A stretch of DNA of 64,000 nucleotides. It comes from Escherichia coli. GTDB lineage: Bacteria; Pseudomonadota; Gammaproteobacteria; Enterobacterales; Enterobacteriaceae. A model generated the notes under the pieces. That model had not been told where the DNA came from and searched no databases. It saw nothing but the letters and a program-made list of their open reading frames with translations. The translations under genes were made by a program, and so were the position numbers. This document shows, piece by piece, positions 8,348 to 43,557 of the stretch. How positions within the stretch are numbered: the stretch's first letter is position 1; the number at the start of each line of letters is the position of its first letter. The DNA lies in assembly GCF_013315695.1 (NCBI RefSeq), contig NZ_CP054353.1; one strand, written 5' to 3'.

Positions 8348-9400
8348 ATGAAAAAGACAGCTATCGCGATTGCAGTGGCACTGGCTGGTTTCGCTACCGT
8401 AGCGCAGGCCGCTCCGAAAGATAACACCTGGTACACTGGTGCTAAACTGGGCTGGTCCCAGTACCATGACACTGGTTTTATTCCTAACAATGGTCCGACC
8501 CACGAAAACCAACTGGGTGCAGGTGCTTTTGGTGGTTACCAGGTTAACCCGTATGTTGGCTTTGAAATGGGTTACGACTGGTTAGGTCGTATGCCGTACA
8601 AAGGCGACAACATCAACGGCGCATACAAAGCTCAGGGCGTTCAGCTGACCGCTAAACTGGGTTACCCAATCACTGACGATCTGGACATCTACACTCGTCT
8701 GGGTGGTATGGTATGGCGTGCAGACACCAAGGCTAACGTACCTGGTGGCGCATCTTTTAAAGACCACGACACCGGCGTTTCTCCGGTTTTCGCTGGCGGT
8801 GTTGAGTACGCGATCACTCCTGAAATCGCTACCCGTCTGGAATACCAGTGGACCAACAACATCGGTGACGCACACACCATCGGTACTCGTCCGGACAACG
8901 GCATGCTGAGCCTGGGTGTTTCCTACCGTTTCGGTCAGGGCGAAGCAGCTCCAGTAGTTGCTCCGGCTCCAGCTCCGGCACCGGAAGTACAGACCAAGCA
9001 CTTCACTCTGAAGTCTGACGTTCTGTTCACCTTCAACAAAGCAACCCTGAAACCGGAAGGTCAGGCTGCTCTGGATCAGCTGTACAGCCAGCTGAGCAAC
9101 CTGGATCCGAAAGACGGTTCCGTAGTTGTTCTGGGTTACACTGACCGCATCGGTTCTGACGCTTACAACCAGGGTCTGTCCGAGCGCCGTGCTCAGTCCG
9201 TTGTTGATTACCTGATCTCTAAAGGTATCCCGGCAGACAAAATCTCCGCACGTGGTATGGGCGAATCCAACCCGGTTACTGGCAACACCTGTGACAACGT
9301 GAAACAGCGTGCTGCACTGATCGACTGCCTGGCTCCGGATCGTCGCGTAGAGATCGAAGTTAAAGGCATCAAAGACGTTGTAACTCAGCCGCAGGCTTAA
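8348..9400 (+). CDS. ompA: Outer membrane protein A (non-K-12 loop allele)
   Basis: 350 aa from ATG 8348 ([21 protein letters not shown]...); barrel and OmpA-like C-terminal domain conserved; loop segments differ from K-12 sequence as I recall it. Confidence 0.95.
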
Positions 9401-38889: not shown

Positions 38890-39056
38890 TATCATCAGGG
38901 AGCTAATCGGCTCCCTTTTTTACCTTTAATTCCGAAATCTTTCGCTGCATTTGCGAATTCTGCTTGTCTGATTGCAGATGCCAGGTAACATAGGTATCCC
39001 CCCATTTACGGGTGGACAAGTGTTTATTTTTTCCGACTATTAACAGAGAGAATATT

Positions 39057-40457
39057 ATGAGCGTTGTGCCTGTAGCCGACGTACTCCAGGGCCGCGTAGC
39101 CGTTGACAGCGAAGTCACCGTGCGCGGATGGGTACGTACCCGCCGAGATTCAAAAGCTGGCATCTCCTTCCTCGCCGTTTATGACGGTTCCTGCTTTGAT
39201 CCTGTACAGGCTGTCATCAATAATTCTCTGCCCAATTACAATGAAGACGTCCTGCGTCTGACCACCGGCTGCTCGGTCATTGTGACGGGTAAAGTCGTGG
39301 CGTCGCCGGGCCAGGGGCAACAATTTGAAATTCAGGCCAGCAAGGTTGAAGTTGCTGGTTGGGTTGAAGATCCAGACACTTACCCGATGGCGGCAAAACG
39401 CCACAGCATTGAGTATCTGCGTGAAGTCGCTCACCTGCGTCCGCGCACAAACCTGATTGGTGCCGTCGCGCGCGTTCGCCATACGCTGGCGCAGGCGCTG
39501 CATCGCTTCTTTAACGAGCAGGGATTCTTCTGGGTTTCAACGCCACTGATTACTGCGTCTGATACCGAAGGGGCTGGCGAAATGTTCCGCGTTTCTACGC
39601 TGGATCTGGAAAACCTGCCGCGTAACGATCAGGGCAAAGTGGATTTCGACAAAGACTTCTTTGGTAAAGAGTCTTTCCTGACCGTATCTGGCCAGTTGAA
39701 CGGCGAAACCTACGCTTGCGCATTATCCAAAATTTATACCTTCGGCCCGACTTTCCGTGCTGAAAACTCCAACACCAGCCGTCACCTGGCGGAATTCTGG
39801 ATGCTGGAGCCGGAAGTGGCGTTTGCTAACCTGAACGATATCGCGGGTCTGGCTGAAGCCATGCTGAAATATGTCTTCAAAGCGGTTCTCGAAGAACGCG
39901 CTGACGACATGAAATTCTTCGCTGAACGCGTAGATAAAGATGCCGTTTCACGTCTGGAACGCTTCATTGAAGCCGATTTTGCGCAGGTGGATTACACCGA
40001 CGCAGTGACCATTCTCGAAAACTGCGGCAGGAAGTTTGAAAACCCTGTTTACTGGGGCGTTGATCTCTCTTCTGAGCATGAGCGTTATCTGGCGGAAGAA
40101 CACTTTAAAGCACCGGTAGTGGTTAAAAACTATCCGAAAGATATTAAAGCGTTCTATATGCGCCTTAACGAAGACGGTAAAACCGTTGCGGCTATGGACG
40201 TTCTGGCTCCGGGCATCGGTGAGATCATTGGTGGCTCTCAGCGTGAAGAACGCCTGGACGTGCTGGACGAGCGTATGCTGGAAATGGGCCTGAATAAAGA
40301 AGATTACTGGTGGTATCGCGATCTGCGTCGCTACGGTACTGTTCCGCATTCAGGTTTCGGTCTTGGTTTTGAACGCCTGATTGCTTACGTAACTGGTGTG
40401 CAAAACGTGCGTGATGTGATTCCGTTCCCACGTACTCCGCGTAACGCCAGCTTCTAA
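39057..40457 (+). CDS. asnS: Asparagine--tRNA ligase
   Basis: 466 aa from ATG 39057 ([13 protein letters not shown]...); class II aaRS. Confidence 0.95.
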
Positions 40458-40470
40458 TTTAGCGTCTTCA

Positions 40471-40498
40471 AGAGCCAGCGCCCGCTGGCTCTTTTTTT
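40471..40498 (+). terminator. asnS intrinsic terminator
   Basis: agagccagcgcccgctggctct hairpin followed by T7. Confidence 0.8.
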
Positions 40499-40608
40499 AT
40501 CCTTTCTGTCAAGTTATCTGTTTGTTAAGTCAAGCAATCTATTTGCAACCCCGCCATAACGATCATCCTGTTACGGAATATTACACTGCAACATTTGCGC
40601 ACAAAAAA

Positions 40609-40640
40609 TAATCCGCATTCTTATTGCGGATTAGTTTTTT
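40609..40640 (+). terminator. Second, orphan terminator-like hairpin in asnS-ompF intergenic region
   Basis: taatccgca-ttcttat-tgcggatta (9-bp perfect stem) followed by gttttttc and preceded by aaaaaa. Confidence 0.55.
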
Positions 40641-40849
40641 CTTAGCTGATAGCACAATTTTCATACTATTTTTTGGCGTTCTGGATGTCTGAACGAGGAT
40701 TTAGTGCCAGGTCGATAAAGTTTCCATCAGAAACAAAATTTCCTTTTAGTTAATTTAAATATAAGGAAATCATATAAATAGATAAAAATTGCTGTAAATA
40801 TCATCACGCTTCTATGGAAATATGACGGTGTTCACAAAGTTCCTTAAAT

Positions 40850-40910
40850 TTTACTTTTAGTTACATATTTTTTCTTTTTGAAACCAAATCTTTATCTTTG
40901 TAGCACTTTC
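40850..40910 (+). promoter_or_regulatory. OmpR binding sites F1-F2-F3 of the ompF promoter
   Basis: ttacttttagttacatattt / tttctttttgaaaccaaatc / tttatctttgtagcactttc tandem 20-bp elements match known ompF OmpR boxes. Confidence 0.7.
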
Positions 40911-40949
40911 ACGGTAGCGAAACGTTAGTTTGAATGGAAAGATGCCTGC

Positions 40950-41058
40950 AGACACATAAAGACACCAAACTCTCATCAATAGTTCCGTAAATTTTTATTG
41001 ACAGAACTTATTGACGGCAGTGGCAGGTGTCATAAAAAAACCATGAGGGTAATAAATA
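40950..41058 (+). promoter_or_regulatory. ompF 5' UTR (about 110 nt; includes MicF sRNA pairing region around RBS)
   Basis: Position inferred from OmpR box spacing; RBS gagggt before ATG 41059. Confidence 0.55.
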
Positions 41059-42132
41059 ATGATGAAGCGCAATATTCTGGCAGTGATCGTCCCTGCTCTG
41101 TTAGTAGCAGGTACTGCAAACGCTGCAGAAATCTATAACAAAGATGGCAACAAAGTAGATCTGTACGGTAAAGCTGTCGGTCTGCATTATTTTTCTAAAG
41201 ACAATGGTGTAAACAGTTACGGCGGAAACGGCGACAAAACTTATGCCCGTCTTGGTTTTAAAGGGGAAACACAAATCAATTCCGATCTGACCGGCTACGG
41301 TCAGTGGGAATATAACTTCCAGGGTAACAACTCTGAAGGCGCTGATGCCCAGAAAGGTAACAAAACTCGTCTGGCATTCGCAGGTCTGAAATTCGCTGAT
41401 GCGGGTTCTATCGACTACGGTCGTAACTACGGTGTGGTTTACGACGCACTGGGTTACACCGATATGCTGCCTGAGTTCGGCGGTGACACGGCATACAGCG
41501 ATGACTTCTTCGTTGGTCGTGTAGGCGGCGTTGCTACCTATCGTAACTCCAACTTCTTCGGTCTGGTTGACGGCCTGAACTTTGCCGTTCAGTACTTGGG
41601 CAAAAACGAACGTGCTGGTATTCCTGAGCGTTCCAACGGCGACGGCGTCGGTGGCTCTATCAGCTACGAATTCGAAGGCTTTGGTATCGTAGGTGCTTAC
41701 GGTGCAGCAGACCGTACCGACGCCCAGGAAGCCGAATTCCGCGGTCAGGGTAAAAAAGCTGAACAGTGGGCAACTGGTCTGAAGTATGACGCGAACAACA
41801 TCTACCTGGCAGCGAACTACGGTGAAACCCGTAACGCTACGCCAATTGAAGGCGGCTTCGCCAACAAAACGCAAGACGTTCTGTTAGTTGCGCAATACCA
41901 GTTCGATTTCGGTCTGCGTCCGTCCATCGCTTACACCAAATCTAAAGCGAAAGACGTAGAAGGTATCGGTGATGTTGATCTGGTGAACTACTTTGAAGTG
42001 GGCGCAACCTACTACTTCAACAAAAACATGTCCACCTATGTTGACTACATCATCAACCAGATCGATTCTGACAACAAACTGGGCGTAGGTTCAGACGACA
42101 CCGTTGCTGTGGGTATCGTTTACCAGTTCTAA
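41059..42132 (+). CDS. ompF: Outer membrane porin OmpF (non-K-12 loop allele)
   Basis: 357-aa precursor with signal peptide [22 protein letters not shown] and C-terminal ...GIVYQF; barrel segments match OmpF, loops differ from K-12 as I recall it. Confidence 0.93.
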
Positions 42133-42161
42133 TAGCACACCTCTTTGTTAAATGCCGAAAA

Positions 42162-42188
42162 AACAGGACGTTGGTCCTGTTTTTTTTA
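42162..42188 (+). terminator. ompF intrinsic terminator
   Basis: aacaggacgttggtcctgtt hairpin followed by T8. Confidence 0.85.
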
Positions 42189-43507: not shown

Positions 43508-43522
43508 GCGTTAAAAACAATG

Positions 43523-43549
43523 AAGCCCGCTTAAAAAGCGGGCTTTTTT
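43523..43549. terminator. Bidirectional terminator between convergent aspC and ycbL
   Basis: aagcccgctt-aaaa-agcgggctt hairpin flanked by A/T tracts. Confidence 0.8.
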
Positions 43550-43557
43550 ATGCGCCT

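Follow-up and report, generated by a model that had tools for sequence, protein, structure and literature searches.

The ompF gene in the DNA studied here (the window, a stretch of 64,000 nucleotides from the Escherichia coli contig NZ_CP054353.1, assembly GCF_013315695.1) carries in its middle a block of 674 bp that departs strongly from the K-12 allele, set between gene ends that are identical to K-12. Sharp borders, identical gene ends and a high silent divergence are together the mark of an old class of alleles exchanged by intragenic recombination. It is highly probable that the mosaic gene of the window arose in this way, with a benefit on the receptor side that we infer from what has been published on OmpF as a receptor. 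Judged from its sequence, the gene is very likely an intact and functional chromosomal ompF of the CE10-type allele class, one of the few deep classes of OmpF in E. coli. The features of the gene and its surroundings are as follows.

40458..41058, plus strand: intergenic and regulatory region between asnS and ompF; 16 differences from K-12, which is ordinary within-species divergence.
41059..42132, plus strand: ompF, 357-aa precursor, CE10-type allele (WP_000977905.1); identified by its open reading frame, NCBIfam, the PDB match and identity with MS 21-1.
41059..41124, plus strand: signal peptide, codons 1 to 22; the same as K-12 in protein and in DNA.
41178..41851, plus strand: divergent mosaic block, 674 bp; 87 substitutions, a 3-nt insertion and an 18-nt deletion relative to K-12 in a position-by-position comparison.
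41854..42132, plus strand: 3' third of ompF, with strands 12 to 16, L7 and L8; DNA 100% identical to K-12, EDL933 and STEC276.
42158..42187, plus strand: terminator-like hairpin 3' of ompF (CAGGAC-GTTG-GTCCTG, then T8), read from the sequence.

OmpF proteins form trimeric, cation-preferring diffusion channels, and their synthesis is regulated by OmpR and micF. That the gene at 41059..42132 (plus strand, ATG start, 357 codons in the list of open reading frames) encodes an OmpF had been proposed in a sequence-only reading of the window, and the identification was borne out. The protein scored 751.9 bits against the NCBIfam equivalog 'porin OmpF' (NF007446; cut-off, 583), and its best match among solved structures was the K-12 OmpF precursor (362 aa, PDB 3hw9), to which it aligned from end to end with 92% protein identity over the full length. 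The Pfam general porin family (PF00267) was found precomputed for the identical cluster representative of the protein. An AlphaFold2 model, built with 67 homologues and of moderate confidence (mean pLDDT 77.6), predicts a 16-strand barrel with the series of strands expected for OmpF, in which a long L3 folds into the pore; the limits of strands and loops used below come from this model. The gene order, asnS-ompF-aspC on one strand, matches K-12 and MS 21-1, and 3' of aspC the genes gloC, mepK, ldtD and mukB lie on the opposite strand, in the K-12 order. The spacer between aspC and gloC (43508..43557) is 50 bp long in the window and in MS 21-1, and 221 bp in K-12 and STEC276; this presence/absence difference of about 170 bp may be a REP-type repeat element.

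E. coli genomes have several related porins, and most genomes gave a second, short match to our query. One might therefore suspect that the gene is a paralogue, or that the block came by gene conversion from a paralogous or mobile porin (phoE, ompC, or the prophage nmpC/lc/ompD type). We find this extremely improbable. On the window protein the PhoE and OmpC models reached only 486 and 465 bits, each under its own cut-off, as against 752 bits for the OmpF equivalog; the synteny is that of ompF; and the block is 87–89% identical to other ompF alleles and at most 69% identical to phage porins. The plasmid collection held no true plasmid copy of the block, the matches there being K-type ompF on chromosome-sized records. 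On the same figures a phage or plasmid vector for the block was rejected. It should be noted that the rejection of a paralogous or mobile origin concerns the entire block; very short conversion tracts within single loops may exist.

Around the gene, Rfam gave no family match (in the asnS-ompF intergenic region or near ompF), and promoter-like sites, as picked by a simple consensus scan, were not more frequent than in shuffled sequence. Scans of this kind missed both the OmpR-dependent ompF promoter and the ompF terminator. The hairpin at 42158..42187 probably went unlisted because runs of A and T lengthen its stem. The ompF leader has a run of A residues at 41034..41040, 19 bases 5' of the start codon, that is A7 in the window and in ST648, and A8 in K-12, ST131 and 18KM2445. 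Upstream, the mechanically called asnS reading frame (39012..40457) begins with GTG, 15 codons before the annotated start (MSVVPVADV...); annotated asnS is 1401 bases long in K-12 and MS 21-1. An antisense reading frame of 257 aa (41101..41874), wholly within ompF, has no support and is regarded as a by-product of the codon pattern of the sense strand.

The mosaic is plain at the DNA level. ompF is 90.5% identical to K-12 over its whole length and 87% identical in the block; the neighbouring genes and flanks differ from K-12 by about 2%, in keeping with the earlier statement that this is not a K-12 strain. Within the gene, the 108 alignment positions that differ all lie inside 41178..41851, and there are no differences from K-12 in 41034..41177 or in 41852..42169 (binomial p = 1e-48 for the clustering). 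The first 119 and the last 281 bases of the gene are ordinary E. coli sequence. From the alleles of K-12, ST131 and EDL933 alike, the block is about 13% divergent.

At the protein level, the window OmpF differs from that of MG1655 (K-12) by 20 substitutions, one additional residue in L4 and six fewer in L6, which together make the precursor 357 rather than 362 residues long. The segments concerned are these.

41197..41229, plus strand: L1, residues 47 to 57, with G48D and E51V, and with M60K just past the loop at the top of strand 2 (alignment and model).
41323..41361, plus strand: L2, residues 89 to 101, with T99K (alignment and model).
41392..41412, plus strand: periplasmic turn region, residues 112 to 118, with Y112F, V115A and F118I (alignment and model).
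41422..41529, plus strand: constriction loop L3, residues 122 to 157, protein as in K-12 with 9 silent differences (Sd = 9, Nd = 0, dS = 0.47).
41599..41643, plus strand: L4, residues 181 to 195, AGIPE in place of DTAR, one residue being inserted (alignment).
41713..41754, plus strand: L5, residues 219 to 232, six substitutions relative to K-12 NLQEAQPLGN (alignment).
41848..41853, plus strand: L6 remnant, residues 264 to 265, EG; K-12 is six residues (TNKFTN) longer (alignment and model).

The amino acid changes are concentrated in the surface loops, as the sequence-only reading had held; this was confirmed by alignment with K-12 and mapping onto the model. Extracellular loops L1, L2, L4, L5 and L6 hold 22 of the 27 differing alignment columns (2, 1, 5, 6 and 8, respectively). 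Put another way, 22 of 61 variable-loop columns differ, as against 5 of the 280 other mature columns (Fisher p = 4e-14). The four loop segments quoted in that reading are all present in the protein and all unlike K-12. Also as it had stated, the signal peptide and the C-terminus match K-12: the former is unchanged, as are L3, L7, L8, the pore-lining residues and the whole protein beyond residue 265. All charges not in the variable loops are carried by the residues found in K-12, and the residues in the region of K16, R42, R82, R132, D113 and E117 are the same in the two proteins. The five changes outside the loops are M60K, at the outer end of strand 2; Y112F, V115A and F118I, in the periplasmic turn; and Y204F, at the periplasmic end of a strand.

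The further claim that change was restricted to the loops holds for most of the protein differences, and fails on two counts. Four of the non-loop changes, all conservative, are on the periplasmic side, and 51 codon differences, all within the block, are purely synonymous and spread over the barrel strands and L3. The nucleotide divergence is not loop-restricted, and most of the substitutions are silent and lie in the barrel strands and L3.

The loop changes alter the charge of the outer face, which we estimate, by summing the individual charge changes, to be roughly two units more negative than in K-12. In L4, R167 of K-12 is aligned with Glu in the window protein. R167S and R168S are among the OmpF mutations that raise permeability (PMC4690030, Table 1), and the change from a positive to a negative residue here may alter the pore mouth slightly.

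The silent sites give an age to the block. In pairwise Nei-Gojobori comparisons of the window with K-12 (omega being dN/dS), the whole block has a dS of 0.535 and an omega of 0.10. Its strands and turns have a dS of 0.40 and an omega of 0.04, and L3 (dS 0.47) has an omega of 0. The variable loops have a saturated dS of 1.19 and, from this pairwise comparison only, an omega of 0.16. For the same pair of genomes, dS in nearby genes is 0.050 (asnS), 0.067 (aspC) and 0.065 (pncB), and between E. coli and E. albertii it is 0.38–0.54 in asnS and aspC. As dS is 0.40–0.54 in the block and 0.05–0.07 in the flanks, the block has about eight times the age of the sequence around it, and its divergence is at the level seen between species. 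Purifying selection has acted across the block except at the loop tips. Even in the loops the pairwise dN/dS is below 1, and the comparison of window and K-12 gives no direct evidence of positive selection.

These values bear on the explanation first offered for the gene, read as recent diversifying selection that altered the loops of a K-12-like ompF by point mutation and left the rest unchanged. The loop concentration of the protein differences (22 of 27 columns) is what one would expect from such a process. Earlier genome scans also placed ompF among the genes under positive selection, as cited in the passages available from Chen et al. (bioRxiv 10.1101/2021.09.21.461324). Against it stand the silent codon differences over strands and L3 (dS 0.40–0.47, eight times the level of the flanks), the sharp borders of the block together with the identical gene ends, and the loop omega of 0.16. 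A bimodal distribution of identity with almost no intermediates, described below, tells against it as well. We consider this account very unlikely, and its claim of loop-specific change in a K-12-like gene gives way to that of a 674-bp block of old divergence. As an ultimate cause, selection by agents that bind the cell surface is reasonable; proximately, the differences stem from the old, recombined allele class.

The lineages that carry the allele, which it had been suggested to look up, were found. WP_000977905.1 is annotated in MS 21-1, ST648, HS-02, 18KM2445 and CE10, and carriers of the class include lineages of phylogroup F, such as CE10 and ST648. Of 5426 complete E. coli genomes, 486 (about 9%) have the block at an identity of at least 99%, 1 at 95–99%, 11 at 90–95% and 4924 at 80–90%. 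The distribution is sharply bimodal. In the genome of E. coli DFL.5 (NZ_CP104843.1) a window-type ompF allele is interrupted by IS1 and annotated as two porin fragments; from its sequence the strain would be a natural OmpF knockout in the CE10-type class.

A handful of genomes were compared base by base, and two of them bear on exchange. Between 18KM2445 and the window, each flank shows a divergence of 1.7%, and the block a single differing base (0.15%); a nearly identical block in differing flanks indicates a recent transfer of the block between backgrounds. In STEC276, ompF (locus L087, 6001..7089) is identical to the window over the equivalent of 41034..41294, L1 included, and K-12-like from there on. 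The breakpoint of this chimera lies between the window equivalents of 41271 and 41295.

Porin loops are known to be weakly constrained. The allele could then simply be old, with loops that tolerate change, and could have spread by drift and ordinary recombination rather than by selection from phages, colicins or immunity; an omega below 1 in every partition agrees with such a neutral history. Four observations suggest otherwise. Backgrounds that are 1.7% apart in their flanks share a block that is nearly the same (0.15%). The classes are discrete and occur side by side at intermediate frequency, 9% for the one in the window. Chimeras show loop modules being recombined, and L5 and L6, both changed, are among the regions to which phage binding has been mapped. 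Since these are suggestive only, we call the neutral history unlikely, and retain the old allele class, exchanged by recombination and favored on the receptor side, as the preferred reading.

Where the block came from was asked of other species. A donor scan with one genome per bacterial species gave at least 80 OmpF loci (E. fergusonii, E. marmotae and E. ruysiae were not among the matches under those names). Among the enterobacterial matches listed, none was nearer to the block, over its whole length or in each loop region, than other E. coli alleles. The nearest of them were those alleles (87–89%), followed by the SCPM-O-B-8794 record (86%) and E. albertii (84.6%). That record (NZ_JAATUR010000002.1) is labelled E. 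coli, and has a silent divergence from E. coli of 0.32–0.46 in asnS and aspC, like that of E. albertii; despite its label, it probably represents a separate Escherichia species, to go by these genes. The named members of the 90% protein cluster that were read are all E. coli, with other species absent.

In a silent-site tree of 170 non-loop codons the block forms a long branch, with the other E. coli alleles as its sister group. The silent-site distance from the block to those alleles is 0.40; among themselves they differ by 0.04–0.07, and K-12 ompF is 0.33 from the ompF of SCPM-O-B-8794. The outgroups also polarize the change in L6. The short form is common to the window, E. albertii, SCPM-O-B-8794 and Citrobacter, which makes TNKFTN of K-12 an insertion and the derived state. 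The sequence-only reading was thus right that the precursor is 5 residues shorter than that of K-12, and had the polarity reversed, as it is the six extra L6 residues of K-12 that are derived. LKFADAGSI, the turn sequence, is also that of SCPM-O-B-8794 and is the usual state of Escherichia and Citrobacter. L4 in its AGIPE form turned up in none of the other species compared.

These results leave room for two histories of the block: an ancient balanced polymorphism of E. coli, or an import from an unsampled Escherichia-like lineage. We put this forward tentatively, as a possibility on the doubtful side. It is raised because the distance of the block from every other E. coli allele (0.40) exceeds that of K-12 ompF from the ompF of another Escherichia species (0.33), because its L4 version is absent from the species compared, and because the collections searched held no donor and no phage or plasmid copy. 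If the block has been held inside E. coli since about the radiation of the genus, then long-term frequency-dependent selection on a receptor for phages and colicins would be at work.

In sum, the events very probably ran as follows. The central 674 bases split from K-12-type sequence about as long ago as the Escherichia species split from one another. Purifying selection then kept the strands, L3 and the pore-lining charges, and let only silent changes through in them, as the exposed tips of five loops (L1, L2, L4, L5 and L6) underwent replacement or a change of length in either direction. By homologous recombination within the gene, the block, or parts of it, is carried between E. coli backgrounds. 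The outcome, if published work on OmpF as a receptor is a guide, would be an altered outer face toward the phages, colicins and antibodies that bind OmpF, with channel function kept. Binding of phage K20 has been mapped to L5, L6 and L7 of OmpF (published work, one source being the passages available from Chen et al.), and entry of colicin E5 needs OmpF. In the literature searched, we found no paper that tests the phenotype of the CE10-type allele.

Because L1, L2, L4, L5 and L6 differ, what has been learned from OmpF of K-12 may not hold for strains of this kind, be it in the use of the protein as a phage receptor, colicin entry, antibody epitopes or the docking of antibiotics near R167/R168. 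This has a bearing on the prediction of host range in phage therapy and on OmpF-based vaccines. Beyond annotation the importance is small, and the gene stands as a clean textbook case of an old allele inside a young gene. The window holds a second gene for a surface protein, ompA (8348..9400, plus strand, 350 aa), with a loop segment of 14 residues that presumably differs from K-12 OmpA and that we take to mark a non-K-12-type allele.

Among known systems, the closest are the strains that share the protein. OmpF of E. coli O7:K1 CE10, ST648 and MS 21-1 has the same accession as that of the window, WP_000977905.1, with no protein difference. In MS 21-1 the ompF DNA is 100% identical and the surrounding 13 kb hold 4 differences, by which measure the window is from an E. 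coli close to MS 21-1. CE10 is 99.3% identical to the window over 49 kb. A segment elsewhere in the window (29632..30396) gave no megablast alignment to CE10, with both its sides 99.3% identical. The equivalent place in CE10, between ssuE and elfD, holds the gene of the fimbrial subunit ElfA, and elfA of the window is probably a divergent allele.

K-12 OmpF (P02931; PDB 2omf, 3hw9) has in common with the window the gene, its synteny, the signal peptide, the barrel, L3, L7, L8 and the C-terminus. It differs by the 20 substitutions, the residue more in L4 and the six fewer in L6 of the window protein, and the Glu of the latter at R167.

Modular surface loops have been documented in OmpC, where isolates differ in L4 and L5 and show these loops in many combinations, and where loop polymorphism determines recognition by CdiA-EC536 and by phage (Beck et al., 2016; PMC5056734). 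In the CdiA-EC536 system all OmpF variants tested served as co-receptor, and variation of OmpF was immaterial there (PMC5056734).

For OmpF itself, the mosaic evolution of porins described by Chen et al., who also treat fhuA, lamB, ompA and ompC, is the same phenomenon as that in the window; the passages searched cover protein trees and loop patterns. In their account the barrels are conserved, the apices of the loops are hypervariable and recombination is local; they distinguish five major OmpF groups and compare modelled OmpF of MG1655, SE15, ATCC 8739, E2348/69 and CE10. One variable region of OmpF is placed by them on the inner face of the barrel, and, as far as those passages go, it corresponds to the Y112F/V115A/F118I cluster of the window. 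The phenomenon and the allele class are thus already known, CE10 OmpF having been part of a published study of mosaic porins. To these the present analysis adds the exact borders of the block, the dating by silent sites, the frequency in 5426 genomes and the negative donor search.
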